From the IMG/VR virus record IMGVR_UViG_3300045957_000057, positions 1 through 53,572 of that record: a DNA stretch of 53,572 bases; one strand, 5' to 3'. The notes beneath the pieces were generated by a model. It had not been told where the DNA came from and made no database searches. It was given only the letters and a program-made list of their open reading frames with translations. The translations under genes were made by a program, and so were the position numbers. Position 1 is the first letter of the stretch. Every line of letters begins with the position of its first letter. The DNA comes from a virus. Lineage: Duplodnaviria > Caudoviricetes. Below are positions 2,056 through 41,565 of this stretch, piece by piece.

Positions 2056-3978
2056 ATGCGGATGTTCAAGATCGGCGATCAGTGGTACAAGCTGGACGGC
2101 GCCCAGCTGGTCAAGATCGATGCTCCGGAGACCGAGCCGGCCGAGGGCGAGTTCTTCGACGCCTCGACTCTCGTGACCGAGTTCGACGGCATCGGCGAGC
2201 TGACCGCCGTCGCCGACCGAGCGAACGAGCTGATCGGCGAGTACAACCGTCTGCGGACCGAGGCCGCGACCGACCCCTCGAAGCTGACCGAGGCGAAGAC
2301 GGCGTACGATGCGTCGCTCGTCGCTCGGGTGCTGCACGGCGAGCGCAAGACCGCTCTCGACGGGCTGCCCGAGGCCGGTGCCCTGCCGAACGAGCCAGCT
2401 CCGACCGAGACCGACGACAAGCCGACCGAGACCGACGACAAGCCGGACGAGACGCCGGACGAGACGCCGGACGGCACTGACGTGACCGTGCCCGACGATG
2501 CGTCGTCGCTCACGCAGTCGATGCAGCTCGTCACCGCTGCCGCCGCTGCTGCCGGTGTCGATCCGGCCGATGTCTTCGCTCGGCTCGTGCCCGGCGGCGG
2601 CGACAAGCCGGCTGGAGCTCCTGCTCGGACCGAGCCTCGACAGCAGGCGACGATCATCGCCGCTGCCGACATCGGCTTCGGTGGCGGGCACGACATGTCG
2701 CTCGACGATCTGGCGACCGCTCATCAGCGGTTCGCGAAGAGCCGCCGGCACAACACCGCCGCCGTCGCCCAGACGATCGCGACGATCGAGATGTACGGCG
2801 ACGCTCCGAGCATGGTCGCATCCGCTCAGGCCGTCGAAGCTGCTGCCGACCGGAAGATCGACGCCGCTTCGGCCGCCGAGTTCCACGCTCGTCGCGCCGG
2901 CAGCCGGGGCATGACCGCCGCCGCTCCGGACCGGTGCGGCCCCCCCGATGTCCGCCGCGAGATCAAGTACGCCGGAGACGACACGTCGCCGCTGCTCAAC
3001 CTGGTGGAGACCTACCCCAGTCCGCACTGCGAGCTGGAGTACTACAAGGACATCTCGCTCTCGGACGCGAGCCCCGGCGTCGGTCGCTGGACCGAGGCCG
3101 CCCGCTCGGCGTATCAGACGGCGCTCGACAACTGGCGCTCGACCCAGGACGCTGCGACGCTCGCTGCGCTCAAGGCGGCCGAGAAGCTATGCGTCATCGC
3201 CGACTGCCCCCCGACGGGCAACGTCACGATGCTGCCCATCTATGCGTGCATCGAGTACCCGACCGATCTCGAGGTCTGCTCGCCGCAGGCGATCCGGGCC
3301 TACATGCGGGCGCTCAACCGTGCGTGGATCCGGGAGCGGTCGTCGAACTTCCTCGCCGTGCTGGCGACGATGTCGGCTCGTGTCACCGTCGACGCTTCCG
3401 ACGGCTTCTTCGAGAACGCCGACACGACCCCGATCAGGCTCGGCGCCGGCGGTGTGCTCGACTACGTGATGTCGACGCTGATGGGCATGGGGGTCATGGA
3501 CGAGCGGGTCACCGAGGGCGACTACGTCGCCGTCGTGCCGTACGGTCTGCAGCGGTTGCTTGAGATGGAGGGCCGGCTCGCCGAGGGTGTGTCGGCGATC
3601 TCCGACACGCTCGGCGGTATCCGCACGATCACGTCGCTCGACGTGGCGACCGGTTCGTCGCTGCCGTGGACGAGCATGCCCGCCCAGGACGGCACCACGA
3701 CCGACTTCGTCGGCGCTCTGCTGCCGCCGTCGGCGTGGGACATCGCCGTCTTCGATCCGAGCGACTTCTTCGCCATCACCCGACCCGACATCGAGCTTGG
3801 TGCTCAGGTCACCCCGGAGACGATCCGAGGGAACATGGTGTTCGGCGGCTTCATGGAGTCGCACGAGGGCTACGGCAAAGACGGCGCTCACCCGAGCTGG
3901 ACGATCGCCGCATCTAATCTCGTCTACAACGGCGTGCGTCCGGACAAGGCTTCGGCCGCCGGGCTGCTCACCGTCTGA
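2056..3978 (+). CDS. Major capsid protein (hexamer type) with N-terminal scaffold-like acidic/coiled region
   Basis: AGGAGG RBS at 2041-2046 before ATG2056; ~640 aa; follows protease; PTETDDK/PDET repeat linker. Confidence 0.8.
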   Translation: MRMFKIGDQWYKLDGAQLVKIDAPETEPAEGEFFDASTLVTEFDGIGELTAVADRANELIGEYNRLRTEAATDPSKLTEAKTAYDASLVARVLHGERKTALDGLPEAGALPNEPAPTETDDKPTETDDKPDETPDETPDGTDVTVPDDASSLTQSMQLVTAAAAAAGVDPADVFARLVPGGGDKPAGAPARTEPRQQATIIAAADIGFGGGHDMSLDDLATAHQRFAKSRRHNTAAVAQTIATIEMYGDAPSMVASAQAVEAAADRKIDAASAAEFHARRAGSRGMTAAAPDRCGPPDVRREIKYAGDDTSPLLNLVETYPSPHCELEYYKDISLSDASPGVGRWTEAARSAYQTALDNWRSTQDAATLAALKAAEKLCVIADCPPTGNVTMLPIYACIEYPTDLEVCSPQAIRAYMRALNRAWIRERSSNFLAVLATMSARVTVDASDGFFENADTTPIRLGAGGVLDYVMSTLMGMGVMDERVTEGDYVAVVPYGLQRLLEMEGRLAEGVSAISDTLGGIRTITSLDVATGSSLPWTSMPAQDGTTTDFVGALLPPSAWDIAVFDPSDFFAITRPDIELGAQVTPETIRGNMVFGGFMESHEGYGKDGAHPSWTIAASNLVYNGVRPDKASAAGLLTV

Positions 3979-12628: not shown

Positions 12629-15600
12629 GTGACCGTCGAGCGAGTAGTCGAGATCGACTTTCGGGCCCAGCGAGCCCGCTCCGAGCTGTCGAGCTTCGGT
12701 GCCGAAGTCGACTCGCTGATCCGGAAGCTGTCAGACGTCTCGCTTGTGCTCACCGTCGACGACGGACAGCTGCGAGGCATCAGCAGCGCTATCGACTCGA
12801 TCGACACCGTCGTCGAGATCGATCTCTCGGTCAACGACAGCGAAGTCGACGATGCCTTCGACTCGGTCGCAGCGCTCGACGGGCTCACACCGTCAGTCGA
12901 TCTCGAAGTGAACACCGGCGACGTCTCGGCCGCCGTCGACGAGCTGAACCGGCTCGACGCCGACGTCGGCGGCACCGTCACGATCGACGACTCGGACATC
13001 ACGAGAGCGATCACCGGCGTCGGAGAGCTGACGTCAGCGCTCGGCAATCTCGACGGCACCGTGACGATCGACCTTGGAGACATCGACGAGGCGACCGCAG
13101 CACTCAACGATCTCGACGGCTTCACCGCCCGAGCGTCGGTGGAGCTCGACGACAGCGAGATCGACACAGCACTCGACCGTCTCGAGGATCTGAACTCGGC
13201 GGTTTCGTCGACGATCACGCTCAACGACTCGGAACTCGACGCAGCGATCCGCAAGGCGAACGACTTTCCCGACCCGATCGACACCGAGATCTCGGTCGAC
13301 GACTCGGCGCTGTCGAACGCCGCCGGACTCGTCGCCGGCGGCACGCTCGCCGGCGGTGTCGCAGCCGGATTCTCGCAGGCGCTCGATCTCGGAGCGACGA
13401 CGGATCTCGTGACAGCGCAGCTCGGACTCACGACCGAGGCCGCCGCTCAAGCCGGCGACGTCGCCGCCAACGTCTACGCCGGAGCGTGGGGCGAGTCCGT
13501 CGGACAAGTCGGCGAGGCGCTGACCGCTGTCGGCCAGAACATCACCGATCTGAACACCGTCGGCGAGGCCGAGCTGCAAGGGCTGACGACTCGGTCGCTC
13601 GATCTCGCCAAGGCGCTCGACGAGGACGTCGGCGGCGTCACTCGATCCGTCGGTCAGCTGATCCGCACCGGACTCGCCGAAGACGCAAACGAAGCGTTCG
13701 ACATTCTCGCCACCGGACTGCAGACCGGAGCGAACCGCGGGCAAGATCTGCTCGACACATTCAACGAGTACGGCACCTCGTTTCAGGGTCTCGGTCTCGA
13801 CGCCAACGACGCTCTGACGATCTTGAACAACGGGCTCGACGCCGGCGTCGATAACACCGATCGCATAGCGGACGGGCTCCGCGAGTTCCGCATCCGGGTA
13901 CAAGACGGCACGACCGCCGGCATCGAGGGCTTCGACAAGCTCGGCATCTCGGCCGGCGAGCTTGAGTCGGCAATCGGCGCCGGCGGACCGGCGGCCCGAG
14001 CAGCGTTTCAGCAAGTCGTGCAAGGGCTGCAGTCGATCGAAGATCCGGTCGAGCGCGACCGGATCGCATTCCAGCTCTTCGGCACCCAGCTGGAGGACTT
14101 CGGCGTCAACGCCGGCGATGTCTTCGACACGACGGCGAACGCGATCGGCGATGTGTCCGGCGCGGCCGAGCAGCTGGGCAACGATCTGAACGACAACGCG
14201 GCCACTCGGATCGAGGAATTCAAGCGGACGGCGTTGCTCGGGCTGACCGAGTTCGTCGGCAACGCCGTGATCCCGGCCGTCGAGGGGCTGATCGAAGTCT
14301 TCGGCCCTGGGCTCCGGTCAGCGTTCGAGACCGTGCGCCCCTTCATCGAGACCTTCATCCAGAGCTTCGAGACACTGCGAGCCGGATTTCAGACCGGCGA
14401 GTTCTTCGGCGGCGGCGGCATCTTCGACGTGATGAACGCCATCGGCGTCGCAGCTCGCGAAGTCGTCGATCAGATCGAGCAGCTGATCCCGACCATCGTC
14501 GAGCTGGCCGGGGCGTTCGTCGCCGGCGTGCTGCCCGGTCTACTCGAAGTCGTCGGCACGATCGCAGCGACCGTCGTACCGGCGCTGCTCGACGTCGGTG
14601 CCGTCATCGTCGACGACGTGCTGCCGGTTGTGCTCGATCTCGCCGGCACGTTCGTCTCGGACGTGCTGCCGGTGCTCGCACAGTTCGCCGGATTCATCAT
14701 CGAGAACGTCGTGCCGGTCGTCGCTGAGATCGTCGGTGCCGTCGCTCGCTTCCTCGGAGTGCTCAACGAAGCGAAGATCCTGCTGCCGATCATCGTCGGC
14801 GCGCTCGCCGTGGTTCTCGGCCCATTCACACTGCTCGGCGGCGCCGTCGTCGCTCTCGTCACTGGGTTGATCCTGCTGTACAACCGCTTCGAGCTGGTCC
14901 GCACAATCGTCGGCATCGTCGGCGACGTGCTCGGCTTCCTGTTCGGTCTGCTCGGCGACATCATCGTCGGCATCATCGACTTCGGCTCGGCGATCGTGGG
15001 CTTCCTGATCGACCCGCTGTCAGCGCTCGGCGGTGTGCTCGATGTCGTCGGCGCGGCGTTCGGGCTGCTCGCCGATGTCGTGACCGCCGTCTTCGGCGTG
15101 ATCGTCGACGTCGTCGGCGCCGGCATCGGCTTCGTCGTCGATCTGTTCACCGGAGCCGGCGACTCGATCGGCGGCGCATGGTCCGCACTGTGGGACGGGC
15201 TGCTCGCCGTCGTCTCGACCGTCTTCGGTCTCGTCGGCGATGTCATCTCGGCAGGCATCGACTTCATCGTCGGACTGTTCGGCGGTGTCGCCGGCGCCGT
15301 CGGCGATGCGTGGTCCGCCGTGTGGGATCTCGTCACCGACGTCGCTCAGACCGGCCTCGACAACCTTGGCTCGATCGTCGAACTCGGACTCAACATCCTG
15401 ACGACGATCTTCGACACCGTGCTCGGTCTGCTCGGCGCCGCATGGTCGCTCTACTGGGACACGATTACCGCCGTCGTCGGCGCAGCGCTCGACGCCGTCG
15501 GCGCCGTCGTGGAACTCGGCCTCGAGATCGTGACGACGATCTTCGAGACGTGGTTCGCCGTCGTCTCGGCCGTCTGGGGCTTCTTCTGGGATGCGCTCTC

Positions 15601-17347
15601 GGCCGTCGTCGGTGTCGCTCTCGACGTCGTCGGCGCTGCGCTCGATCTCGGTCTCGCCGTGCTGACGGGCATCGTCGAGAGCGTGCTCGACGGTCTCGCC
15701 GTCGTCTGGGATCTGTTCTGGACCGGACTCTCGGCGATCGTCGAGCTGTACATCGGAATCGTCTCGACCGTCGTGCAGACCGGACTCGATGCGGTGTCGG
15801 CAATCTTCGACACCGTCGTCGGCATCGTCACCGCAGCGTGGGATCTGTTCTGGTCCGGACTCGTCACCGTCGTCGAGACGTACATCGCTCTCGTCACCGC
15901 AGCGATCGACGTCGGACTCGCCGTGATCTCGACGATCTTCGAGACGATCACCGGAGCTGTGCAAGCGGTCTGGGACTTCTTCTGGCAGCAGCTCGTGCAG
16001 ACCGTCGACTTCTATGTCGGTCTCGTTTCGGCAGCGATCGATCTCGGTCTCGCTGTGCTGACCGCTGTCTTCGAGACGGCCGCGGCCGTCATCACCGGCG
16101 TGTGGGATCTGCTGTGGGGCGGCATCCAGGCCGTCGCCGAGACCGTCATCGCTGCCGTGACGCTCGTCGTGCAGGGCTGGGCGATCATCCTCTCGGCAGC
16201 GTTCGAGGTGATCTCGGCCGTCGCCGGCGCCGTCTGGGACACGTTCTGGGCGACCGTGCAAGCCGTCGTCGACACCGTCATCGCTGTCGTCGTCGGTCTC
16301 GTCGACACCGGACTGAACAACGTGCGCACGATCTTCGAGACCGTGACCGGCATCGTGCAGACCGTCGTCTCGACAGCGTTCACAGCGATCCAGACGACGA
16401 TCTCGACCGTCATGTCGATCGTGAGCGGCATCGTCAGCTCGGTGCTCGGCACGATCCAGTCGACGTTCTCGTCGGTGCTGTCGGCGATCTCCGGTCTCGT
16501 GTCGACGATCTTCGGCACGATCCGGTCGAACATCTCGACGGCGATGTCGGCGATCTCGGCCATCGTCAGCTCGGTGCTCGGCATCATCCGGTCGACGTTC
16601 TCCGCCGTCTTCACCGCGATCCGCACCGTCGTCTCGACAGCCATGTCGAGCATCCGCACCGTGATCTCGGCCGGCATGGCAGTCGTGCGGAGCGTGATCA
16701 CGACCGCAGTCACGACGATCCAGCGAGTCTGGTCGACCGCATGGGGCGTCATCGAGCGAGTCGTCAACACCGCCCGCAGCGGCATCGACGCAGCCATGTC
16801 CGGCATCCGCCGAGCGATCGAAGCGCTGCTCGGCCCGATTCAGACCGTCGTCGACGGCTTCCGCCGGATCACGAACAACATCCCGAACTTCGGCTCGATC
16901 ACCTCCGGTCTCGGCGGCATCGATATCCCGTTCTTCGGCGCCGGCGGCGTCGTCGACGGTGCGACACTGCTCGTTGCCGGCGAGCGCGGCCGAGAGGCGA
17001 TCGTGCCGGACTATGCGAGCTTGACCGACATCAAGCGCATCCTCGGCCGCACGTCGATCCTCGACCGGCTCGCCGCCGACTTCTCGGCTCAGCAGCGAGC
17101 AGCGTTCTCGGCGTTCACTCAGCGCACCGAAGACGATCAGTCGCTCGGCGACCCCGGCGGCCGGTTCGGTGGAGCTCCACCGCCGCCGACGTTCGTCGAC
17201 AACTCGCAGCATCACTACGATCTCAAGATCGTCGACGGCTCCGGCACCGCAGCGTCGAAGCAGCGCACAGCGTCGGCCGTGCTCGGCGAGATCAAGCGCA
17301 AGCGACCGCCGCGCCGTCCGGCCGGCAGCTGGAGGGCCGCCCGGTGA
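12629..17347 (+). CDS. Tape measure protein
   Basis: 1572 aa; Ala/Gly-rich core; 11/22-residue Trp/Phe periodic repeats; follows chaperones. Confidence 0.93.
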   Translation: MTVERVVEIDFRAQRARSELSSFGAEVDSLIRKLSDVSLVLTVDDGQLRGISSAIDSIDTVVEIDLSVNDSEVDDAFDSVAALDGLTPSVDLEVNTGDVSAAVDELNRLDADVGGTVTIDDSDITRAITGVGELTSALGNLDGTVTIDLGDIDEATAALNDLDGFTARASVELDDSEIDTALDRLEDLNSAVSSTITLNDSELDAAIRKANDFPDPIDTEISVDDSALSNAAGLVAGGTLAGGVAAGFSQALDLGATTDLVTAQLGLTTEAAAQAGDVAANVYAGAWGESVGQVGEALTAVGQNITDLNTVGEAELQGLTTRSLDLAKALDEDVGGVTRSVGQLIRTGLAEDANEAFDILATGLQTGANRGQDLLDTFNEYGTSFQGLGLDANDALTILNNGLDAGVDNTDRIADGLREFRIRVQDGTTAGIEGFDKLGISAGELESAIGAGGPAARAAFQQVVQGLQSIEDPVERDRIAFQLFGTQLEDFGVNAGDVFDTTANAIGDVSGAAEQLGNDLNDNAATRIEEFKRTALLGLTEFVGNAVIPAVEGLIEVFGPGLRSAFETVRPFIETFIQSFETLRAGFQTGEFFGGGGIFDVMNAIGVAAREVVDQIEQLIPTIVELAGAFVAGVLPGLLEVVGTIAATVVPALLDVGAVIVDDVLPVVLDLAGTFVSDVLPVLAQFAGFIIENVVPVVAEIVGAVARFLGVLNEAKILLPIIVGALAVVLGPFTLLGGAVVALVTGLILLYNRFELVRTIVGIVGDVLGFLFGLLGDIIVGIIDFGSAIVGFLIDPLSALGGVLDVVGAAFGLLADVVTAVFGVIVDVVGAGIGFVVDLFTGAGDSIGGAWSALWDGLLAVVSTVFGLVGDVISAGIDFIVGLFGGVAGAVGDAWSAVWDLVTDVAQTGLDNLGSIVELGLNILTTIFDTVLGLLGAAWSLYWDTITAVVGAALDAVGAVVELGLEIVTTIFETWFAVVSAVWGFFWDALSAVVGVALDVVGAALDLGLAVLTGIVESVLDGLAVVWDLFWTGLSAIVELYIGIVSTVVQTGLDAVSAIFDTVVGIVTAAWDLFWSGLVTVVETYIALVTAAIDVGLAVISTIFETITGAVQAVWDFFWQQLVQTVDFYVGLVSAAIDLGLAVLTAVFETAAAVITGVWDLLWGGIQAVAETVIAAVTLVVQGWAIILSAAFEVISAVAGAVWDTFWATVQAVVDTVIAVVVGLVDTGLNNVRTIFETVTGIVQTVVSTAFTAIQTTISTVMSIVSGIVSSVLGTIQSTFSSVLSAISGLVSTIFGTIRSNISTAMSAISAIVSSVLGIIRSTFSAVFTAIRTVVSTAMSSIRTVISAGMAVVRSVITTAVTTIQRVWSTAWGVIERVVNTARSGIDAAMSGIRRAIEALLGPIQTVVDGFRRITNNIPNFGSITSGLGGIDIPFFGAGGVVDGATLLVAGERGREAIVPDYASLTDIKRILGRTSILDRLAADFSAQQRAAFSAFTQRTEDDQSLGDPGGRFGGAPPPPTFVDNSQHHYDLKIVDGSGTAASKQRTASAVLGEIKRKRPPRRPAGSWRAAR

Positions 17348-23275: not shown

Positions 23276-24805
23276 ATGGAACCGACCAACGAACAGTCGG
23301 CGATCATCGACGCCGCCGGCGACGGGCGGCATCTGCTCGTCGAAGCGCTCGCCGGCACCGGCAAGACGACGACGATGGAGGAGCTCGTCCGCCGCAATCC
23401 GGGCGGCCCGTCGCTGTACATCGCCTTCAACCGCTCGATCGTCGACGAAGCGACAGAGCAGATGCCGCCCGTCGTCCGCTGCGCGACCGTGCACGAGCTG
23501 GCGTATCGAGCGATCGGCTCGCCGTGGACGAAGCGAACTCGCATGCCCCGGATGAAGTCGACCGAGATCGCACGCCGGCTCGGCCTCGAGGCGATGTGGC
23601 TCAACGGACCGTGGGGCAGCAAGCGAGTCTCGGCCGGATTCCTCGGCGGGCTCATCGTGTCGTCGCTCAAGCGGTTCGCCCGCACCGGCGATCTCGTGCC
23701 GGGCCCGCAGCACGTGCCGCTACCTCGGGCAGCGCAGCTCGATCCGGGCATCCGGCTACTCGGCCGCGAGATCCGATCGCTGATCGCACCGAAGCTCGCT
23801 CAAGCGTGGGCGCTGACGACCGCCGTCGACGGCGAGCTGCCGATCGACGGAAACGTGATCATCAAGATGTGGCAGCTCTCGAACCCGGTGCTGCCGTACG
23901 ACCGGATCATCGTCGACGAGGCGCAGGACATGAATGACGCCGCTCGTGCGGTGATCGAAGCGCAGATCGACCGGTCGCAGCTGATCATCGTCGGCGACAC
24001 GTGGCAGCAGATCAATGCATGGAACGGCGCCGTCAATGCGCTGTCGAAGTTCTCGAAGCTGATCGACCGGCCGCCGCTGTACCTGACGAACTCGTGGCGG
24101 TTCGGACCGGAGATCGCCGAGCGAGCGAACCTCGTGCTCGACACGCTCGGCGCTCCGACCCGGCTCGTCGGCCGCGGCGCACCGGGCGAAGTCCGGCACC
24201 TCGACTCGCCGGATGTGCGACTCAGCCGGACGAACGCCGAAGCGGTCAGAGTCGCGCTCGAAGCGCTGGCCGACGGCCGGCGGCCGCACATCGTCGGCGG
24301 CGCTACCGACGTCGTGAACTTCGCCGAGAACGTCATCGAGCTCCAGCGCGGCGGCACGGTCACGCATCCGGAGCTGGTGTGCTTCGACTCATGGGCCGAC
24401 GTGCTCGCATACGTCGCGACCGACGAACTCGGCGCCGAGCTGAGCGGCTTGGTGAACCTGATCCTCAAGTTCGGCGCTCAGACGATCGTCGACACGATGG
24501 GCAAGCAGCCGGACGAAGACGACGCCGACATCGTGCTGTCGACGACGCACAAGATCAAGGGTCGGCAGTGGCCGACCGTTCAAATCGCAGGCGACTTCAC
24601 CGTGCTGCCCGGAGTTCTCGACGACGTCGAAGAGCTGCGGCTGCTGTACGTCGCAGCGACTCGACCGCGGACGACGCTCGACGTCTGCGAGCCGATGTTC
24701 TACCCGGATCGAGCACCCGAATTGGAGGACAACAATGGAAGCTCAGACGACGGAGACGCTGACCGAGCGGCCGGAGCTGATCGACCCGACCGAGTGGAAG
24801 CGTGA
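23276..24805 (+). CDS. UvrD/Rep-like superfamily 1 helicase
   Basis: ALAGTGKTT, DEAQD, VGD.WQQI, LT.SWRFG, STTHKIKG, LYVAATR motifs. Confidence 0.9.
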   Translation: MEPTNEQSAIIDAAGDGRHLLVEALAGTGKTTTMEELVRRNPGGPSLYIAFNRSIVDEATEQMPPVVRCATVHELAYRAIGSPWTKRTRMPRMKSTEIARRLGLEAMWLNGPWGSKRVSAGFLGGLIVSSLKRFARTGDLVPGPQHVPLPRAAQLDPGIRLLGREIRSLIAPKLAQAWALTTAVDGELPIDGNVIIKMWQLSNPVLPYDRIIVDEAQDMNDAARAVIEAQIDRSQLIIVGDTWQQINAWNGAVNALSKFSKLIDRPPLYLTNSWRFGPEIAERANLVLDTLGAPTRLVGRGAPGEVRHLDSPDVRLSRTNAEAVRVALEALADGRRPHIVGGATDVVNFAENVIELQRGGTVTHPELVCFDSWADVLAYVATDELGAELSGLVNLILKFGAQTIVDTMGKQPDEDDADIVLSTTHKIKGRQWPTVQIAGDFTVLPGVLDDVEELRLLYVAATRPRTTLDVCEPMFYPDRAPELEDNNGSSDDGDADRAAGADRPDRVEA

Positions 24806-25211
24806 GCTGCTTGCGAGCGGCCGAGCGATCATCTGCCGGCAGGTGCGAGTCGACTGGCCGGAGACGGTGCAGACGTGCTTGCCGCACGACATGCTCGTCG
24901 CGTACTGGTGGTCGAGAGTGATCGGCTGCTGTCCGGCGGTCGCCGTGTCGTATCTGCACCACGTGGCGGTCACGGCCGGCTCGGTCGACGTCGATCGGCT
25001 GTCGGCGCTGCTCACTCCGATCGATGGCGGCTCGGTGCTCGAACCGGGCTCGATCGTCGACGAGTGGAACGTCATCGACAACATCGTCGCCGCCGCTCGG
25101 TATCGGCTCGTGCTGTGCACCGAGCACGAGCTGCTGCTGCCGACGCTCGTGCCGCAGCCGGGCTCGGTGAGCTTCGAGCACATCGAGGCGCTGTTGCGAG
25201 GTGACGACTGA
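24735..25211 (+). CDS. Hypothetical protein
   Basis: GGAGG RBS. Confidence 0.55.
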   Translation: MEAQTTETLTERPELIDPTEWKRELLASGRAIICRQVRVDWPETVQTCLPHDMLVAYWWSRVIGCCPAVAVSYLHHVAVTAGSVDVDRLSALLTPIDGGSVLEPGSIVDEWNVIDNIVAAARYRLVLCTEHELLLPTLVPQPGSVSFEHIEALLRGDD

Positions 25212-25513
25212 TGGGCACCGACTGCTCTGGATTCACTGGCACGATCACCGTGACCGGCTCGACCGGCCCGGATGATCCGCACTGCGAGACGTGCGGACGG
25301 CGGCACTCGGAACACGAGCGAGCTGACCGGTTGAGCGAGCTGCAGACGGCGCTTGAACGACTGCACTCCGAGCGGCGACTCGACTGCGTCGTCGCCGGCA
25401 AGACAACGAACGACGGCCGGCCGGCGTCGGTCTGCACCGAGATCATCACCCGACACCAGCAGATGTGCGCCGGCTGCGCCGCTCGACGACTGCTCGGAGG
25501 TGGCGGCTCATGA
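25211..25513 (+). CDS. Small Cys-rich protein
   Basis: Coupled ORF; CxxC motifs. Confidence 0.5.
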   Translation: MGTDCSGFTGTITVTGSTGPDDPHCETCGRRHSEHERADRLSELQTALERLHSERRLDCVVAGKTTNDGRPASVCTEIITRHQQMCAGCAARRLLGGGGS

Positions 25514-26100
25514 CCGAGCTGATCAGCGACACGATGAGACTCGTGCTCGAAGCCGAGACCGTCGCCCTGCCGGCACAGACCGGCCCGTACGTCGAGTACA
25601 AGTGCGGCTGCAGCGAGTACATCGGCGACATCGACGCTCACCACTGGAACCGATGCGCTCCGCACGACCGGCATCTCGTCACTCGCTCCGGCGACTCGGA
25701 GATCTGCCGGCGCTGCGAGGTCGTGCATCACTACGTCGACAGCCGGATCGAAGCGGTCACCGGCACCGGCGGTCTCGTCTTCGTCTGGTGGCAAGACGAC
25801 CACGGCTCGAAGTGGATCGGCCGAGCGCTCGGAGCGTCGACCGACGTCTCGAAGTTGCTCGTCGACTCGGCGCACTGCACTGACGAACCGGCGGCCGAGC
25901 CGGAGCCGGAGCCCCGGCAGCGGCGGACGTTCTTCGTCGTCTGGTGCTCGATCTGTGATCCGAAGCCCGACGACCGGCACCCGTCGACGGTGTTCGGCGC
26001 CGAAGACGAGCGCGAAGAGTGGATCGAGCAGCACACCGCCGGACACACCGGCTTCGGTGATGGCGAACCGACGTACACGAGGAAGGAAGCGAAGCGATGA
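25510..26100 (+). CDS. Cys/His-rich hypothetical protein
   Basis: ATGA overlap. Confidence 0.5.
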   Translation: MTELISDTMRLVLEAETVALPAQTGPYVEYKCGCSEYIGDIDAHHWNRCAPHDRHLVTRSGDSEICRRCEVVHHYVDSRIEAVTGTGGLVFVWWQDDHGSKWIGRALGASTDVSKLLVDSAHCTDEPAAEPEPEPRQRRTFFVVWCSICDPKPDDRHPSTVFGAEDEREEWIEQHTAGHTGFGDGEPTYTRKEAKR

Positions 26101-26855
26101 GCGACGACGACATGTTGACCGACCCGTGGGGGATCGCAGACGAGATCGACGGACTCGTCGACGGCTACGACCCGTCGGCCGAAGAACCGCCGACCGTCAC
26201 CGACGAACAGGCCGCCGACTGGGCCGGCCGACGGCTGCTCGCTCTTCGGTTCACAGCCGACGAGATGCGGCAAGTGCAAGCGCAGTACGCCGCCGAGATC
26301 GCCCGGCTCCGACAGCGCCTCGAGGAAGAGATCGCTCGGCTGAACGATCAGCGCGACGAGCACGTCGAGCAGCTGCAGTCGACGCTCGTCGCGCTGTCCG
26401 GCCAGCTGCAGCGCATGCACGCACAGCGGATCGCTCACAGTGAGCAGCTGCACCGCATCGCCGCATCTGCCGCAGCGGACGAGGGCCGGTCGGAGCCGAA
26501 GAAGCGGCTGCCGACGACGATCCGAGTGCCGCACGGCACGCTGCGGTCGCGACAAGCGTCCAGCAACGCTGTCGTGAGCTTCGATCCGGAGCACGAGACC
26601 GACATCGTGAAGTGGCTCGAAGCGAACGGCTACGGCGAAGGCGTGCGGGTCAAGCCGGCGGTCGCTGAGCAGCGGCTCGTCGACAAGCGCAAGCTCGGCG
26701 GGCTGGTGAAGCGTGACGACGACGGCAAGATCGTCGGTCTGACGAACGACGCCGGGGACGAGTGTCCGCACGTCACGGTCACCGACCGAGGCCGTGCGTA
26801 CTGGATCGAGCTGCCGGACGGCCGCAGCTCGAAAGACTGGATGCCCGAGCACTGA
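26097..26855 (+). CDS. Mu Gam-like host-nuclease inhibitor / DNA end-binding protein
   Basis: Long coiled coil then TIRVPHGTLRSR motif; adjacent to RecT. Confidence 0.65.
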   Translation: MSDDDMLTDPWGIADEIDGLVDGYDPSAEEPPTVTDEQAADWAGRRLLALRFTADEMRQVQAQYAAEIARLRQRLEEEIARLNDQRDEHVEQLQSTLVALSGQLQRMHAQRIAHSEQLHRIAASAAADEGRSEPKKRLPTTIRVPHGTLRSRQASSNAVVSFDPEHETDIVKWLEANGYGEGVRVKPAVAEQRLVDKRKLGGLVKRDDDGKIVGLTNDAGDECPHVTVTDRGRAYWIELPDGRSSKDWMPEH

Positions 26856-26896
26856 TAGAACGGAAGTACTAGCATGGCTGACATGGAAACCACTCA
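26856..26896 (+). promoter_or_regulatory. Early promoter: TAGAAC-N4-GTACTA, -10 TAGCAT, leaderless ATG
   Basis: Repeat of the motif at 22829. Confidence 0.75.
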
Positions 26897-28142
26897 CGAC
26901 GAACAGACGACGACCGACGACGATCCGGAGCTGGAGCTCCCGCCGGTCGAAGAGCAACCGACGACCGACGAGACACCGGCCGAGACCGGCCGAGAGACCG
27001 ACTCAGCGGTCGTGCAGTACACCGACCGAGACCGAGACGTCATCGCGTCCGTCGTCGGTCAAGGTGAGCTGAACGACGACGAGATCGACTTCGTGCTCGC
27101 TCAAGCGAAGCGGCTCGGTCTCGATGTGATGACCAAGCACATGCACGCCTGGAAGCAAGACGGGAAGCTGATCATGATGGTCGGCATCGACGGGCTGCGG
27201 CTCGTCGCTCGCCGCACCGGTCAGTTCCTCGGCCGAGACGATCCGGAGTGGCTGACCGCTGACGGCCGCTGGGTCGATGCGTTCATCACCGGCGCCGACG
27301 GCTACGGCCGGTTCCCGCTCGCAGCTCGTGTGCGAGTGCACCGCCGCGGCGATCTGCATCCGACGACCGGTCTCGCGCTGTGGGCCGAGTCGGCGAAGCT
27401 GTACGCCGACGGCAACCCGAAGGCGTCATGGAAGTCGATGCCGGCGCACATGCTCGCGAAGGTCGCCGAAGCGATGGCGCTGCGAGCTGCGTTCCCGGCC
27501 GAGCTGGCCGGCGTCTACACCGACGACGAGATCGCTCACGCTGACGATCTGCTCGCCGACCGGGGCGATCCGGCGAAGAATCCGGGCGCCGGCGACGAGA
27601 CGATCGCAGCGCTCGAAGCTCGACTCGCTGCGATGCAGCCGGAGACTCGCGCTCGGCTCGAAGGGTGGTGGTCGACGCAGTACGGCCCCGGTGTGCTCAA
27701 CGATCCGAACGTGCTGCCGCTCTCGCAAGGCGGTCTGCACCGGTTCACTGCCGCATCGGAGCACGTGACGTACGTCGAGCAGATGATCGGCCGAGCGGAG
27801 CAGCACGACGCCGACAAGGGCGGCGACAGCTCCGGACCAGAGCCGGAGACGCCGGCGCCGACCGGCACTTCGTCGGCCGGCAAGCCGACCGAACCGTCCG
27901 GCGAGCCGGCACCGTTTACCGATCTCGAGGCGACCGTGCTCGCAGCGCTGGAGATTGCGCCGGAGTCGAACCCCGACGAGATCGCCGCGGCCGGCGGCGT
28001 GCCGAAGGATGCGTCGCTCATGACGGCGATCGCTGCGCTGCTTGAGGGCGATCTGATCGAGCCGGTCGGCGACGGCCGAGGGCCAGCGAAGAAGTACCAA
28101 CGGAACGAACCATTGATCGCCGAGATCGAGGGAGATGCGTGA
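26883..28142 (+). CDS. bet: RecT/Redbeta (Bet) single-strand annealing recombinase
   Basis: GIDGLR..A.RTG, W..MP.HMLAKVAE..ALR.AFP, GVYT.DE motifs. Confidence 0.9.
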   Translation: METTHDEQTTTDDDPELELPPVEEQPTTDETPAETGRETDSAVVQYTDRDRDVIASVVGQGELNDDEIDFVLAQAKRLGLDVMTKHMHAWKQDGKLIMMVGIDGLRLVARRTGQFLGRDDPEWLTADGRWVDAFITGADGYGRFPLAARVRVHRRGDLHPTTGLALWAESAKLYADGNPKASWKSMPAHMLAKVAEAMALRAAFPAELAGVYTDDEIAHADDLLADRGDPAKNPGAGDETIAALEARLAAMQPETRARLEGWWSTQYGPGVLNDPNVLPLSQGGLHRFTAASEHVTYVEQMIGRAEQHDADKGGDSSGPEPETPAPTGTSSAGKPTEPSGEPAPFTDLEATVLAALEIAPESNPDEIAAAGGVPKDASLMTAIAALLEGDLIEPVGDGRGPAKKYQRNEPLIAEIEGDA

Positions 28143-36826: not shown

Positions 36827-37084
36827 TCACGCAACGACCCGACCGCGCAGCGATCCGACAACAGCTTGGCCTCGAGGGCAACCTCGACGAGATCCGACGC
36901 CGCCGGTATCTACTGCTGCACGGCACGTGCGCCGCCGTCACCGCAGCCGCAGCGCTCATCAGCATCATCATCTGACCGAAGCTCACGAGCTACAGTCACC
37001 GACCGACACTGCCCCGGCATCCGAGACGCCGCCATCTCGGACATGTCCGGGGCGGTGCCGCGCCCCCGTGGCATCATGACCAGC

Positions 37085-37462
37085 ATGAGCAGCATGAGCA
37101 GCAGCATCGTCACCCGACTCCGCAGACGCTTCGGTCGACGCAGACGTACAGCGACCACCGTCACACCGATCGCTCTCCGACCCGTCCCACTCGACGCCGA
37201 CGGCAGCCGACAGCGGCACCCATCAGGCCAGCCGAGACTCTTCGAGCCGGACCCGTACGCCGTCAACGACCACCCGATGATGCCGTGCACCGCACGCCGA
37301 GACGACCTCGCCGGCGCCGAGCTGACCGTCGAGTTCTGCGATCCGCAGCGCGACACGCGCCCCAGAGCCGACATGAGCGTCTGCACATGCGACGTCTACC
37401 CTCCGCCGATCTGCGGCCGTCGCGGCTGTCACTTCCGTCGCGGCTGTCACGTCTGCGGATGA
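37085..37462 (+). CDS. Hypothetical Cys-rich protein; first gene of the modification/terminase operon
   Basis: ATG 7 nt after CATCAT (37072-37077). Confidence 0.45.
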   Translation: MSSMSSSIVTRLRRRFGRRRRTATTVTPIALRPVPLDADGSRQRHPSGQPRLFEPDPYAVNDHPMMPCTARRDDLAGAELTVEFCDPQRDTRPRADMSVCTCDVYPPPICGRRGCHFRRGCHVCG

Positions 37463-37986
37463 AGCAGCCGATCACGCCGGAAGAGCTGCACCGCTCACAC
37501 CGCTGGTTCAAGCTCGACGAACTCCGGCAGCTGCCCGGCAACCCGAACACCGGCGACGAGCAGTCGCTCACCGACTCGATCGACCAGTTCGGATGGTTCG
37601 ACGGCATCGTCGTCGCTGACGGCATCGTGCTCGCCGGCAACCACCGGCTGCAGCGAGCGCTCGACCGAGGCGAGGCCGGTCTGCCGGGATACGACTTGAC
37701 CGGCTTCGACGTGTCCGACGCCGAGCGCATGTCGATGGCGATCACGCACAACCGCACGACTCGGGCCGGTGTCGACGATCCGGAGCTGCTGCGAGCCGCC
37801 CTCGAGACCGTCGCCGTCGACGACCGGCAGCTCGCCGTCGTCGCTGTCGGCCCGGAGCTGGCAGACGACATGCTCGGCCCGGCCGTGGTCCCCGACTTCG
37901 CTCCGCTGCCGCCGGAGTCGCAGCCGAGACTCGACCGCCGCGAGCCGGTCGTCTGCCCGTCGTGCTCGCACTCGTTCCTGCCGTGA
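37459..37986 (+). CDS. ParB/Srx N-terminal-domain protein with C-terminal Zn ribbon
   Basis: NPN, SI.QFGW...IV, LAGNHR, CPSC.H.F. Confidence 0.75.
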   Translation: MKQPITPEELHRSHRWFKLDELRQLPGNPNTGDEQSLTDSIDQFGWFDGIVVADGIVLAGNHRLQRALDRGEAGLPGYDLTGFDVSDAERMSMAITHNRTTRAGVDDPELLRAALETVAVDDRQLAVVAVGPELADDMLGPAVVPDFAPLPPESQPRLDRREPVVCPSCSHSFLP

Positions 37987-38750
37987 CAGTCGTCGTCGCT
38001 CCGGTCGAGCACGACGCAGCGACGTTCGCCTGCCGGCACTGGCACTACAGCCGATGTGTGCCGGCCGGCAAGCTCATCAAGTACGGCGCCTGGGAGTCCG
38101 ACCGGTTCGTCGGTGTCGTGCTCTACGGCCGCGGCTCGAACAAGAACCTCGCGAAGTCGTTCGGCGTCGAGACGACCGAGATCTGCGAACTCGTCCGGAT
38201 CGCTCTCGACGAGCACGAGACACCGGTGACGCAGATCGTCGCCGAGACGCTGCGGCAGCTCCGGCAGTCGAACGGCGGGCTGCGTGTCTGCGTCAGCTAC
38301 GCCGACCCGGAGCAGCAGCACGTCGGTCGGATCTATCAAGCCGGCAACTGGACGTACCTCGGTCGGACCGAACCGGCTCAGGAGTACGTCGTCAACGGCG
38401 AGCGGATGCACGGCCGGTCACTGCGAGCGCTCCGCAACGCCTCACCGACCGACACTGCCGAGCACCGGAACGTCGTCAAGTGGGCGCAAGCAAACCTCGA
38501 TCCTGATGCTCGGATGGAGTTCGGCTCGTCGAAGCACCGGTACGCGATGCCGCTCGACAAGCCGATGCGGCGGGCGCTGCGCCGGCGAGCGCTGCCGTAT
38601 CCGGCGACGGTCGACGGCGGCGAACTCGTGCGGTCGGTTGCGCTAGAGTCCTCGGTCACAAGCGGTCGAGGGATCGACGGTGATCCGCCCGGCGTCCAGC
38701 GGGGAGGGGTGAGTTCAACTCTCGCCGACCGCTCGGAGAGCAGCCGATGA
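37983..38750 (+). CDS. mom: Mom-like (GNAT-fold) DNA adenine modification enzyme
   Basis: HYS, GV..YG, ELVR.A, VSYAD..Q.H.G.IYQA.NW.Y.G, KHRY motifs. Confidence 0.8.
   Translation: MTVVVAPVEHDAATFACRHWHYSRCVPAGKLIKYGAWESDRFVGVVLYGRGSNKNLAKSFGVETTEICELVRIALDEHETPVTQIVAETLRQLRQSNGGLRVCVSYADPEQQHVGRIYQAGNWTYLGRTEPAQEYVVNGERMHGRSLRALRNASPTDTAEHRNVVKWAQANLDPDARMEFGSSKHRYAMPLDKPMRRALRRRALPYPATVDGGELVRSVALESSVTSGRGIDGDPPGVQRGGVSSTLADRSESSR
38662..38733 (+). tRNA. Degenerate tRNA-Gly(TCC)-like RNA within the 3' end of the mom-like gene
   Basis: Acceptor GCGGTCG/CGACCGC + T73; D-arm GGATC/GATCC; anticodon loop CGTCCAG; T-arm GTGAG-TTCAACT-CTCGC; upstream -10 TAGAGT at 38644-38649. Confidence 0.75.
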
Positions 38751-39358
38751 CAGAGCAGCCGACGCTACGGACAGAGCAGCAGCGCGCCGGATGGGCTCAC
38801 GCAAGCGAGAACCCTGATCAGGCGACCGTGACCGGTATCGCCGCCGCGGCCGGCGTCAGCACCGGCACCGCTGCGAAATGGCTTCGGCAGTGGCGTGAAC
38901 AGCTCGGCGATGATCTCTTCCGATCCGAAGCGGCGACCGCTCGTGCTGAGCAGACGTTGGCGGCTCGTGAGGCGGTCGAGCTGATGTGGGACGATCTTCA
39001 CCTCACCGAGGCCCGCAACGCCGGTGTGACGGCTGGACGCATCCGGACGAAGATGCTGGAGCTTCTGCCGTCGGTGGCGACGGTTCGAGTCGATCGGGGT
39101 GCCGACGGTCAGTCGGAGCCGGTGCTCGTGCCGGGGCCGCCGGCTCGTGAGATCGAGCAGCTGTCTCGTGCGTACGTGCGTCTGCTTGAGGCGGCCGAGC
39201 TGATGTCGGGCCGGCCGACTCGGCACACTCGCCGGTCGGTGCCGTCTGATCAGTGGCAGCCGGCGGTGCCGGCTGATGCGATGTCGGACGAGGAGAAGCG
39301 TGCGAAGGTGCTCGACATCCGCGAGCGGCTGCTCGAACGACGGGCGGCGGGCGGATGA
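38747..39358 (+). CDS. Terminase small subunit (HTH)
   Basis: IAAAAGVSTGTAAKW HTH; upstream of the large subunit. Confidence 0.6.
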   Translation: MTEQPTLRTEQQRAGWAHASENPDQATVTGIAAAAGVSTGTAAKWLRQWREQLGDDLFRSEAATARAEQTLAAREAVELMWDDLHLTEARNAGVTAGRIRTKMLELLPSVATVRVDRGADGQSEPVLVPGPPAREIEQLSRAYVRLLEAAELMSGRPTRHTRRSVPSDQWQPAVPADAMSDEEKRAKVLDIRERLLERRAAGG

Positions 39359-39594
39359 CCGGGCACTCGTGCGATGTGTCGATCGGCTGGGTGATCGGGC
39401 CAGTCGGTGACGGTCGGCCGTCGGTGATCGACTACCGAGTGACGTGCCGGAGCTGCGGCATCGTCGACAAGGCCGGTCTGCACCGGCTCGCTGTCGGTCG
39501 GGCCGAAGCGCACGAGGCCGAGCACGACGCTCCGGCCGGCGGCCGGTGCGAGCCGGGCTTCGATCTCGACGAGCCGGAGAGGGCGGCCGGCTGA
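39355..39594 (+). CDS. Hypothetical protein
   Basis: Coupled ORF; CxxC. Confidence 0.45.
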   Translation: MTGHSCDVSIGWVIGPVGDGRPSVIDYRVTCRSCGIVDKAGLHRLAVGRAEAHEAEHDAPAGGRCEPGFDLDEPERAAG

Positions 39595-39667: not shown

Positions 39668-39994
39668 ATGCCCTGCGGCCAGATGCACGAGCGGCACTGG
39701 TTCACTCGCCGGGGGCTGATGGACACCATGATCAGCGTGCTGCTCGAGGACGGCGGCGGACTCAGCTCGACCGAGCTGCGACAGCTGACCGAACCGCTCG
39801 GCGTGCCGTACGACCGCTTCGACGTCGTGCTGCGGTACCTCGTCCGTGCCGGCGACGTGATCCGTGTCGAACAACCAGACTGGCATCACGTCGTCGAGGT
39901 CCGCGACGATGAGCAGAGCTGGCCAGCCGAGTCGCATCTGTACTTCGCTGACCCGATGGCCGAGACGAGCTGGGCCGCGACCGCAGCGGCATGA
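39668..39994 (+). CDS. Hypothetical protein (winged-helix-like)
   Basis: Coupled to terminase. Confidence 0.45.
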   Translation: MPCGQMHERHWFTRRGLMDTMISVLLEDGGGLSSTELRQLTEPLGVPYDRFDVVLRYLVRAGDVIRVEQPDWHHVVEVRDDEQSWPAESHLYFADPMAETSWAATAAA

Positions 39995-41565
39995 CCGACA
40001 CGCTCGACCCGCTCGTCGACGAGCAGCTGCTCGATCTGCTGACCGACGACTTCGTCGCACAGCTCGAAGGCGACGAACTCGACGCTCTGCTCGAAGTGAT
40101 GCTCGACACGGTCACCGTGCCCGGACGCCGCGGCCTACAACCGCATCAGCTCCCACCGGCGGACTTCCAAGCCGGAGAGCAGTTCGCTTGGATGTTCCAG
40201 GCCGGCCGCGGCTCCGGCAAGACGATGTCGATGAGCGAAGAGCTGTACGATCACGTCATGCACGGCCCGCCGTGCGACCCGTTCGAGCCCGGCGGTCACC
40301 GGATGGCGATCGTCGCTCCGACGCTCGGCGACGTCGCGTCGTCGTGCTTTCTCGGCCCGTCCGGTCTCCGGCGGATCGATCCCCGGTTCAAGATGGTCTC
40401 TCGGAAGGGCGGCACGTTCGTCATCTTCCCGAACGGCGCCGAAGCGAAGTGCACCGGCGGCAAGACCGAAGACGACACCGAGCGGCTGCGAGCGGCCGGC
40501 AACCTGTGCCGAGCGTGGGTCGAAGAAGCGGCGGCGATCAAGCGGCTCGCTCTCGTGTGGCGTCAGCTGCAGTTCGCCGTGCGGATGGGGCCGCGGCCGC
40601 AAGTGCAGATGTCGTCGACACCGAAGCGGACGACGGCGTTCAAGCGGGTCGTCGACTCGCACCGGGTGACCGTCACTCGTGCCCGGACGGCCGACAACGT
40701 GTATCTGCCCGAGTCGGAGCGCAAGCGGCTGTACGAAGACCACCAGGGCACTCGGCTCGCAGCTCAAGAACTCGAAGGCGAACTCGTCGAAGAGACACCG
40801 GGCGCGCTGTGGACCGGCGACGTCGTCGACGAGCGCCGGATTCTGACGTCGAAGTTGCGGCTGGAGCTCCCGCCGGCGGACGAGACACGAGAGCAGTGGT
40901 TGCGGCGTGCGCTCGGTCTGACGACGGTCTTCGTCGGCGTCGACCCGGCGACGTCCGGCGCCGGCGACCGCACCGGCATCGTCGTCGTCGGCGGCGACAA
41001 CCCGGCGAAGCGGCCATCACGACAGCGTGATGTGTTCTTCCTCGAAGACCGCACCGCGCTGATGGTTCCGTCGACCGTCGATCTCGGCGAAGCGCTCGGC
41101 GACGACAAGCTCGACCCGAACATCGAGGGCTGGGGCGACGTGCTCGGCGAGGTCGCGATCCGGTGGGCGGCCGACGGCGTCGTCGTCGAACGGAACCGGC
41201 TCGGCCGCACCGCTCGCGCCGTGATCCGAGCAGCCGGATTCACCGGTCGGATCATCGAGATCGACGCCAAGGGCTCGAAGGCGAACCGTGCCGACGCTCT
41301 CCGGCAGACGTGGCGGCGGCGCTGCTGGATCGTCGACAAGCTCCGGCATCTCGAGGCCGAAATGACGACATGGGTGCCGGCCGAAGGCGACGATCCGGAG
41401 TTCGACGACGAGGCCGACGATCTGCACGAGTTCACCGGTTCGCCGGACGCTCTGGACGGGGCCGGTCATCCGGCTCGTCTGCTGCTCGGTCTCGAAGAGC
41501 CGATCGTGCCGGACTCCGGCCCGCTGTCGGATGCGATGCTCGCCGGCTGGCAGTCGGTCGCATGA
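39991..41565 (+). CDS. terL: Terminase large subunit
   Basis: AGRGSGKT Walker A, WVEEAA, STPK, QELEGE, GVDPA, VVERN, SPD.LD. Confidence 0.92.
   Translation: MTDTLDPLVDEQLLDLLTDDFVAQLEGDELDALLEVMLDTVTVPGRRGLQPHQLPPADFQAGEQFAWMFQAGRGSGKTMSMSEELYDHVMHGPPCDPFEPGGHRMAIVAPTLGDVASSCFLGPSGLRRIDPRFKMVSRKGGTFVIFPNGAEAKCTGGKTEDDTERLRAAGNLCRAWVEEAAAIKRLALVWRQLQFAVRMGPRPQVQMSSTPKRTTAFKRVVDSHRVTVTRARTADNVYLPESERKRLYEDHQGTRLAAQELEGELVEETPGALWTGDVVDERRILTSKLRLELPPADETREQWLRRALGLTTVFVGVDPATSGAGDRTGIVVVGGDNPAKRPSRQRDVFFLEDRTALMVPSTVDLGEALGDDKLDPNIEGWGDVLGEVAIRWAADGVVVERNRLGRTARAVIRAAGFTGRIIEIDAKGSKANRADALRQTWRRRCWIVDKLRHLEAEMTTWVPAEGDDPEFDDEADDLHEFTGSPDALDGAGHPARLLLGLEEPIVPDSGPLSDAMLAGWQSVA

Follow-up and report, generated by a model that had tools for sequence, protein, structure and literature searches.

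The virus record IMGVR_UViG_3300045957_000057, analysed here as one whole stretch of 53,572 bp (the window), carries a 72-nt cloverleaf at positions 38662–38733 that overlaps the 3' end of a gene for a Mom-family GNAT enzyme. Sequence comparison identifies this element as a real gene for a tRNA-Gly-derived RNA. The family to which it belongs is large and had not been recognised before, and its members are fused to the 3' ends of Mom genes of a single clade. The comparison also establishes the conserved structure of these RNAs, their linkage to Mom, and a pattern of conservation that matches the determinants recognised by glycyl-tRNA synthetase (GlyRS). The RNA is probably a phage-encoded, GlyRS-charged carrier of glycine dedicated to Mom.

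The element in the window

An earlier note on this DNA had described the cloverleaf with its perfect acceptor stem, discriminator U, D-arm, anticodon TCC and T-loop TTCAACT, and every one of these details is correct (Table 1). The irregularities that it listed, namely A8, G33, a G.G mismatch in the anticodon stem and the lack of an encoded CCA, are likewise present in the sequence. It had placed the element in the last ~30 codons of a Mom-family GNAT gene, in agreement with codons 227–251 of a 255-codon open reading frame (ORF) that matches PF25680.

The cloverleaf is the minimum-energy structure computed by RNAfold for 38662–38733. The window copy has the 7-bp acceptor stem, G18G19, a T-loop of the form UUCRANY and the G53–C61 pair, and its T-stem consists of G49–C65, U50.G64 and G51–C63. 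The GlyRS set (G1–C72, C2–G71, C35, C36 and U73) is present with all five of its members. U8, unpaired A14 and A21, and U33 are universal features of tRNAs. At these positions the window copy has A8 and G33, and its C14 pairs with G21, which lengthens the D-stem to 5 bp.

Taken as a single sequence, the element is unconvincing. ARAGORN predicts 0 tRNAs in the whole window, and nothing there reaches an Rfam gathering score (29 bits for RF00005). The best Rfam match at the element is to tRNA-Sec, with 23.1 bits against a gathering score of 47 and an E-value of 0.04 that applies to a 601-nt search only. The folding z-score is -1.46, and 17 of 200 shuffled sequences fold as well. Because none of ARAGORN, Rfam and the z-score rises above chance, the case that the element is more than a chance fold comes from its relatives only.

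A -10 hexamer of its own had also been proposed for the element. TAGAGT is indeed found at 38644–38649, but a separate promoter is unsupported, since a scan of 37000–39500 predicted neither a promoter-like site nor a terminator.

A family of RNAs linked to Mom

A covariance model built from 14 relatives with the window left out (R2), and searched with filters off, matches exactly 38662–38733 with 70.5 bits (E 4e-16, model positions 1–72). The next best match among those listed at E <=10 in the 53.5 kb scores 15.2 bits. This second match (3335–3405, minus strand, E 0.11) has acceptor-like and D-arm-like parts and no anticodon or T arm; it lies inside a plus-strand gene and is probably due to chance. 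The model match, together with a location on the same strand at the 3' end of Mom, identifies the element as a member of the Mom-linked tRNAGly-like family.

Eighty IMG/VR loci with Mom relatives were gathered by an alignment-based scan. A scan of IMG/VR with a single protein returned no relative, and a metagenome scan with the window protein returned two loci only, one truncated and one distant, neither with the element. In 53 of the 80 IMG/VR loci, a model built from 15 sequences (R1) places the element on the Mom strand and at the 3' end of the gene; R1 also matches the window and the phages Zartrosa (76.7 bits), Sicarius2 and Appa. A second-round model (R3) adds 17 loci and brings the count to 70/80; beyond this count, an element is apparent by eye in L041.

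Among prophage loci from GTDB genomes, R3 finds the element in 11 of 18, plus one that is cut by the contig end. The hosts belong to the Alphaproteobacteria, Gammaproteobacteria, Desulfuromonadales, Chloroflexota, Planctomycetota, Acidobacteriota and Armatimonadota, and include a Methanobacterium. Four isolate phage records (Sicarius2, Zartrosa, Appa and Salinibacter B2_17) carry the element at the 3' end of Mom. The conserved, covarying cloverleaf beside Mom homologs that the earlier hypothesis called for is thus found across all three collections, with compensatory changes in 17 of 22 pairs. The loci are partly redundant, with 46 distinct sequences among 57 in one set and 70 among 85 in the other.

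Most members escape the usual detection tools. ARAGORN reports 15 tRNA-Gly and 2 tRNAs of undetermined type in the 80 IMG/VR loci, all 17 on the Mom strand and at the 3' end of Mom; elsewhere in these loci it finds two tRNAs, both unrelated. Of 20 members that ARAGORN misses, 0 reach any Rfam gathering score.

The isolate phages provide the clearest individual cases. In Arthrobacter phage Sicarius2 (L001 2086–2156; MW862982 44335–44405) the element is an unannotated tRNA-Gly(UCC) that is called by ARAGORN, scores 42.4 bits with RF00005 and has 21 nt in common with the end of the Mom-like gene. Relative to the window copy, its acceptor, D and T stems show compensatory changes, and the T-loop, A8 and U73 are shared. 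The copy of Arthrobacter phage Zartrosa (L003 2101–2171; NC_049468 46463–46533), with 37.5 bits for RF00005, is also unannotated. In Microbacterium phage Appa, a tRNA-Gly(CCC) is annotated 33 nt beyond Mom and on the strand opposite to it. The tRNA-Gly annotated in Salinibacter phage B2_17, which fails RF00005, likewise lies 33 nt beyond the Mom homolog. Over the whole genomes of Sicarius2, Zartrosa and Appa, the Mom-linked element is the sole RF00005 match above the cut-off in each; in the window, ARAGORN, Rfam and R2 find no tRNA besides the element.

Covariation and maintained structure

In a MAFFT alignment of 15 sequences, 98.8% of the cells are in standard pairs, and both sides have changed in 17 of the 22 pairs. 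The covariation score is 0.717 against 0.207 in shuffled alignments and is reached by 0 of 500 shuffles, which ignore phylogeny. When the partner columns are slid as a control, pairing falls to 33–50%. The 46 distinct sequences are 97.5% paired with a score of 0.801, in an alignment that was fitted to the model and leans towards the structure. Over both alignments, compensatory changes are seen in 17–18 of the 22 pairs.

The loops also vary together. A D-loop GG accompanies a T-loop UUC in 18 sequences and AG accompanies UGC in 12, while the mixed combinations number 3 and 0 (Fisher p 1.3e-6, not corrected for relatedness). This association corresponds to covariation of the 18–55 elbow contact, implying that the L-shape is kept. 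Judged by these patterns, the structure of the element is under selection.

Conserved and relaxed positions

The positions that hardly vary are those read by GlyRS. Among the 46 distinct sequences, G1–C72 and C2–G71 are each found in 46, G3–C70 in 44 and U73 in 45; C35C36 is present in all 42 anticodon loops of seven nucleotides, and G53–C61 is invariant in the family. The reported determinants of eubacterial GlyRS are G1–C72, C2–G71, C35, C36 and U73 (PMC10464925), and U73 is described as shielding Gly-tRNAGly from DTD (PMC6097841). The claim that the GlyRS identity set is kept thus holds for the window and extends, nearly without exception, to the family.

A73 is found instead in the Methanobacterium copy, as in the host tRNAGly of that archaeal genome, and in one pair of loci of low G+C. 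The Methanobacterium locus (L086 1776–1852, on the chromosome) has a Mom homolog of an archaeal provirus followed by an element with an irregular anticodon loop. The copies at L075 1425–1498 and L080 2098–2171 are near-canonical, with U8, A73, 42% G+C and an 8-nt anticodon loop that contains UCC; ARAGORN calls this variant a tRNA of undetermined type.

Other positions are relaxed. Position 8 is A in 42/46. Among the 42 seven-nucleotide loops, position 33 is U in 28, G in 7, A in 4 and C in 3, hence other than U in 14; position 34 is U in 28 (the UCC anticodon), A in 8, C in 4 and G in 2. The D-stem has 5 pairs or the whole D-arm is absent, four members have anticodon loops of 5 or 8 nt, and the T-stem pair 51–63 is A–U in 22/46. 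The loop type CG-N-CCAG of the window copy is seen in further members, so its G33 is a family trait and not a sign of decay. In five host genomes, each of the 8 tRNAGly genes of the host carries U8 and U33 and has a normal D-loop, whereas the Mom-linked copies in those genomes have A8 or no D-arm.

Two architectures and the Mom reading frame

The family comprises two forms. The first, which includes the window copy, is ~72 nt long with A8 and a 5-bp D-stem, and its CCA is mostly not encoded. The second is ~65 nt long and without a D-arm; an A is bulged in its T-stem (GGCGG ... CCGACC), and CCA is encoded in nearly all cases. Its anticodon loop is often CGACCAG, which gives G33 and the anticodon ACC. 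The second form is found at L009, L028–L031, L046, L047, L056, L061, L062, L071, L076, L084, L088, L091 and L092.

In many loci the element begins 2–6 nt past PYP, the last conserved motif of Mom; in the window the distance is 58 nt. The linker that fills this distance (38604–38661, ~19 codons, VDGGELVRSVALES...) is matched at the protein level in P0001–P0003, the closest homologs of the window Mom, with 65–77% identity by alignment. The frame of Mom was taken from the start of each tblastn match in 57 loci. Its stop lies past the element in 46 of them (by 17 nt in the window), inside it in 7 and before it in 4; the copies of L044, L053 and L105 are located 33–60 nt past the Mom stop. Over 70 distinct elements, 57% of all frames are open in any case, so that read-through by Mom is only mildly enriched.

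The odd C-terminal tails of many Mom proteins in the databases are the translated element, which is read in different frames in different members. Selection on a C-terminal peptide encoded by the element was considered and rejected in view of the disordered tail, the differing frames and the 57% of frames that are open anyway. A remnant of attP or of integration was also rejected: the cloverleaf is of full length, its place relative to Mom is fixed in many unrelated contigs, and no integrase adjoins it in the window.

Proposed function and alternative explanations

From these patterns we infer that the RNA is transcribed together with mom, processed and charged, that Mom uses it and that it is kept out of translation. 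It would form the 3' portion of the mom transcript, as the overlap on the same strand suggests, and would be released by tRNA-processing enzymes, with CCA either added or, where present, self-encoded. Host GlyRS would then charge it with glycine, which is proposed because the near-constant positions are the known determinants of this enzyme. By analogy with Mu Mom, the phage Mom would use the glycyl group of the RNA to acylate adenine at N6 in the phage's DNA, and rearrangement would then give N6-carbamoylmethyl-adenine. That Gly-tRNAGly is the donor, as the earlier note had stated, is verified for the Mu enzyme (PMC13219725).

U8, a canonical D-loop, U33 and a defined position 34 are not maintained, and the RNA is therefore probably meant for Mom and not for the ribosome; it would provide a private pool of donor without draining translation. 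The earlier idea of a GlyRS-charged, non-ribosomal RNA appears well supported in that it fits both the conserved and the relaxed positions. Action in trans is supported by the inverted copy of Appa, by several copies that lie 33–60 nt past the stop and by the CCA that many members without a D-arm encode.

Several observations weigh against a dedicated carrier. Mu Mom is reported to accept all three host isoacceptors (PMC13219725), so a private carrier is not strictly needed. The T-stem of the window copy is not the combination described as weak for EF-Tu (PMC7826273), and exclusion by EF-Tu is thus unsupported for this copy, whose anticodon stem moreover contains the G.G mismatch. A search of sequencing runs with the sequence listed one DNA run, from a sediment metagenome that may be its source, and no RNA run. 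Excision of the RNA would cut the mom mRNA before its stop, given the 46 of 57 frames that are open through the element, which would also fit a role in cis. The models R1 and R3 also match ordinary host tRNAGly with 47–64 bits, and the family is for this reason defined by features and position, not by score alone.

The distribution of the element counts on the same side. R3 finds it in none of 12 distant Mom loci (Mu, Salmonella SP-038, Bacillus Thornton, Enterococcus, Corynebacterium Stickynote, Synechococcus, Geobacillus, Listeria, ICP1, Mycobacterium Sorpresa, RaK2 and Melnitz), and it was not detected in 10/80 IMG/VR loci and 6/18 prophage loci. Relatives of the same Mom clade without a detectable element are L014–L018, which are A+T-rich and near-identical to each other, L027, L034, L065, L081, L085, L087, L089, L090, L099 and L101. 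These same-clade loci may have lost the element or may carry forms too divergent for the models.

That the cloverleaf arose by chance in coding sequence rich in G+C, or is the relic of a gene in decay, is barely credible, and chance is already refuted. Such an origin would agree with the absence of an ARAGORN call, the 23.1 bits in Rfam, the z-score of -1.46, the stem mismatch and G33, and with the closest protein homologs (79% and 77% identity), which end ~7 residues past a shared RSVAL motif. It is contradicted by the 70.5 bits of the window-free model against 15.2 for the best background match, by the compensatory changes relative to Sicarius2 in three stems and by the recurrence of the G33 loop CG-N-CCAG in the family. 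An ordinary phage tRNA-Gly that supplements decoding of GGA and GGG is very unlikely, although phage tRNAs are common, the UCC anticodon is found in 28/42 members, and some members are near-canonical (L040 with U8) or, in 15/80 IMG/VR loci, are called tRNA-Gly by ARAGORN. A decoding tRNA would not be expected to replace U33 in 14/42 members, to have A, C or G at position 34 in 14/42 and A8 in 42/46, to lack the D-arm in some members or to have loops of 5 or 8 nt in others. None of the 20 ARAGORN-negative members reaches a gathering score, and the host tRNAGly in the same genomes is canonical. The identity is moreover always glycine, the place always at Mom, and the element is the genome's sole tRNA in the window, Sicarius2, Zartrosa and Appa. 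Phage tRNAs have been proposed as a counter to defences that target tRNAs, and a decoy or spare tRNAGly against a host defence directed at tRNAGly or Gly-tRNAGly, unrelated to the chemistry of Mom, would account for the conserved GlyRS determinants. This explanation is highly improbable: it leaves unexplained the fixed position at the Mom stop across phyla and the absence elsewhere in the genomes, and a spare translational tRNA would need the decoding features that are relaxed here.

ThrRS binds a tRNA-like operator of its own mRNA, and in a similar manner the element could be a cis-acting tRNA mimic in the mom mRNA that regulates mom or the downstream gene, for example through binding of Mom or GlyRS that represses translation or alters mRNA stability. 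Such a role is rather unlikely, but it has several points in its favour. The element overlaps the Mom frame in 53/57 loci (with the stop after it in 46 and inside it in 7), it starts 2–6 nt past PYP in many loci, the scan of 37000–39500 predicts no separate promoter or terminator, and mom of Mu is tightly regulated through Com. On the other hand, the Appa copy is on the strand opposite to mom, the copies of L044, L053 and L105 are 33–60 nt off the ORF, and the mild enrichment of read-through is what remains once the 57% of frames that are open anyway are considered. An encoded 3' CCA and a conserved discriminator suit a free, chargeable 3' end and not an internal motif of an mRNA.

For the glycyl carrier, a broader picture can be drawn, which is tentative and falls a little short of an even bet. 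The elements would represent a hidden class of minimal aminoacyl-carrier RNAs of 65–74 nt, some without a D-arm and some encoding CCA, in phages whose hosts span many bacterial phyla and in at least one provirus of an archaeon. Freed from translation, they would serve only as GlyRS-charged donors of glycine to a DNA-modifying enzyme, and each release would cut one mom message before its stop and act as a brake on a toxic enzyme.

The Mom gene and its neighbours

The window is a complete virus record with 67.7% G+C. A screen based on G+C at third codon positions yields 42 credible genes, all on the plus strand; a 43rd ORF that passes the screen (16012–16806, minus strand) is nested inside the gene at 12629–17347 and is regarded as spurious. 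The record is permuted, and Mom and the RNA element stand just ahead of the terminase genes (Table 1). A replication and recombination module at 23276–28142 comprises a UvrD-like helicase (23276–24805), a Mu Gam-like protein (26097–26855) and a RecT-family protein (26874–28142).

Table 1. Positions of the tRNA-like element, its parts and the adjoining genes in the window.
Feature	Position	Strand	Remarks
Non-canonical tRNA-Gly(UCC)-like RNA	38662–38733	+	72-nt cloverleaf; from sequence, minimum-energy fold and model R2
Acceptor stem	38662–38668 / 38726–38732	+	GCGGTCG/CGACCGC, 7/7 Watson-Crick
Position 8 = A	38669	+	
D-arm	38671–38686	+	5-bp D-stem 38671–38675 / 38682–38686
Anticodon arm	38688–38704	+	loop CGTCCAG 38693–38699; one G.G mismatch in stem
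G33	38694	+	
Anticodon TCC	38695–38697	+	
T-arm	38709–38725	+	T-loop TTCAACT 38714–38720
Discriminator U (T in DNA)	38733	+	CGG next; CCA not encoded
Mom-family GNAT gene	37983–38750	+	255 codons from GTG 37983; Pfam PF25680, phrog_1384
ParB-like gene	37480–37986	+	directly 5' of Mom; phrog_723 E 3.7e-16
Shine-Dalgarno-like GGAGAG	38735–38740	+	6 nt 5' of the next gene's ATG (38747); read from sequence
Downstream gene with HTH_23 domain	38747–39358	+	Pfam HTH_23 E 8.7e-5, below curated cut-off
Large terminase	39991–41565	+	Pfam Terminase_6N E 1.5e-14

The product of the Mom ORF matches Pfam PF25680 with 154 bits (E 5.3e-45, cut-off 27.1) and phrog_1384 of PHROGs with E 5e-49. In an alignment with Mu Mom, R72 is the counterpart of the essential R111 and is invariant in the clade, and T83 aligns to the essential S124, where the clade has S or T. 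The PF25680 domain ends at about residue 207–214, and the folded domain closes at the PYP motif (38595–38603). The tail, residues 210–255, is predicted to be disordered, and the predicted local distance difference test (pLDDT) of AlphaFold2 is <50 for 210–232 and 237–255.

The ParB-like ORF is open from 37285, and its TGA stop overlaps the GTG start of Mom (GTGA); a Pfam search with the gene gave no match. In Sicarius2, Appa and Zartrosa, a gene annotated as ParB-like precedes Mom. A tblastn search with the window protein finds such a gene 5' of Mom in 53/80 IMG/VR loci, 11/18 prophage loci and 3 phage records, and among the distant Mom loci fetched in L105 only. The ParB-like gene, Mom and the carrier RNA look like a conserved three-part module; a possible task of the ParB-like protein would be to bring Mom to DNA or to load it there.

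On the other side of the element, the ATG of the next gene overlaps the Mom stop (ATGA), and the product of this gene is possibly the small terminase. With a Shine-Dalgarno-like sequence between it and this ATG, the element appears to be placed like an intergenic gene, though the Mom frame is open throughout.

Significance and comparison with known systems

The use of a charged tRNA by Mom for DNA modification has been established only recently, and the family offers a natural experiment on which parts of a tRNA Mom reads. In dozens of lineages of independent descent, where GlyRS and Mom alone would have to be satisfied, the acceptor end, the discriminator, C35, C36 and the L-shaped core survive while other features drift. 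If the proposed function is true, these would be the first tRNA-like RNAs encoded by viruses that are devoted to an acyl transfer outside translation, and the first with a link to DNA hypermodification. Both tRNA finders and Rfam miss this widespread class of genes derived from tRNAs, and unannotated genes are hereby flagged in well-studied SEA-PHAGES genomes. The family also points to a module of ParB-like gene, Mom and carrier RNA.

Mu Mom moves glycine from Gly-tRNAGly onto N6 of adenine (Silva et al., Nat Commun 2026, PMC13219725); it takes all three E. coli isoacceptors and rejects Gly-tRNAAla (PMC13219725). The window enzyme belongs to the same family, PF25680, and has the counterparts of R111 and S124. 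The Mu locus (L104), unlike the loci described here, has no linked tRNA (0 matches) and its enzyme uses any host isoacceptor, whereas here the donor-like RNA is phage-encoded, fused to mom and non-canonical. The main text of PMC13219725 and the 2023 preprint make no mention of mom-linked tRNA genes, and literature searches on Mom-like proteins with tRNA-Gly, on momylation and on broader terms gave no prior report of a Mom-linked tRNA in the titles, abstracts and passages covered.

The non-proteogenic tRNAGly NP1-3 of Staphylococcus aureus, which feed FemXAB (PMC7826273), offer a functional parallel: they are GlyRS-charged glycine tRNAs that serve a non-translational transferase, as the Mom-linked RNA would. 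Both keep U73, which is reported to protect Gly-tRNAGly from DTD (PMC6097841). The staphylococcal carriers are chromosomal genes of a bacterium that serve peptidoglycan, in contrast to a viral RNA that would serve DNA. Their hallmark T-stem A49–U65, U50–A64, A51–U63, described as weak for EF-Tu (PMC7826273), is not found in the window copy. They also keep a normal cloverleaf, whereas in the Mom-linked family A8 is present, the D-arm is either absent or has a 5-bp stem, and position 33 varies.

Like ordinary phage tRNAs, the elements are tRNA-derived genes of phages, and a few members are annotated as tRNA-Gly (Appa and Salinibacter B2_17). Unlike them, most members fail ARAGORN and RF00005, and the element is a single gene that is always of glycine identity and always located at Mom.

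The 3' tRNA-like structures of plant RNA viruses are also viral tRNA mimics; they terminate a coding RNA and can be charged by a host synthetase. The window copy does not match the plant-virus tRNA-like structure RF00233 (11.9 bits against a gathering score of 40, E 8.6), and differs from it in that it is encoded by a DNA phage and forms a true cloverleaf with identity elements in the anticodon loop.

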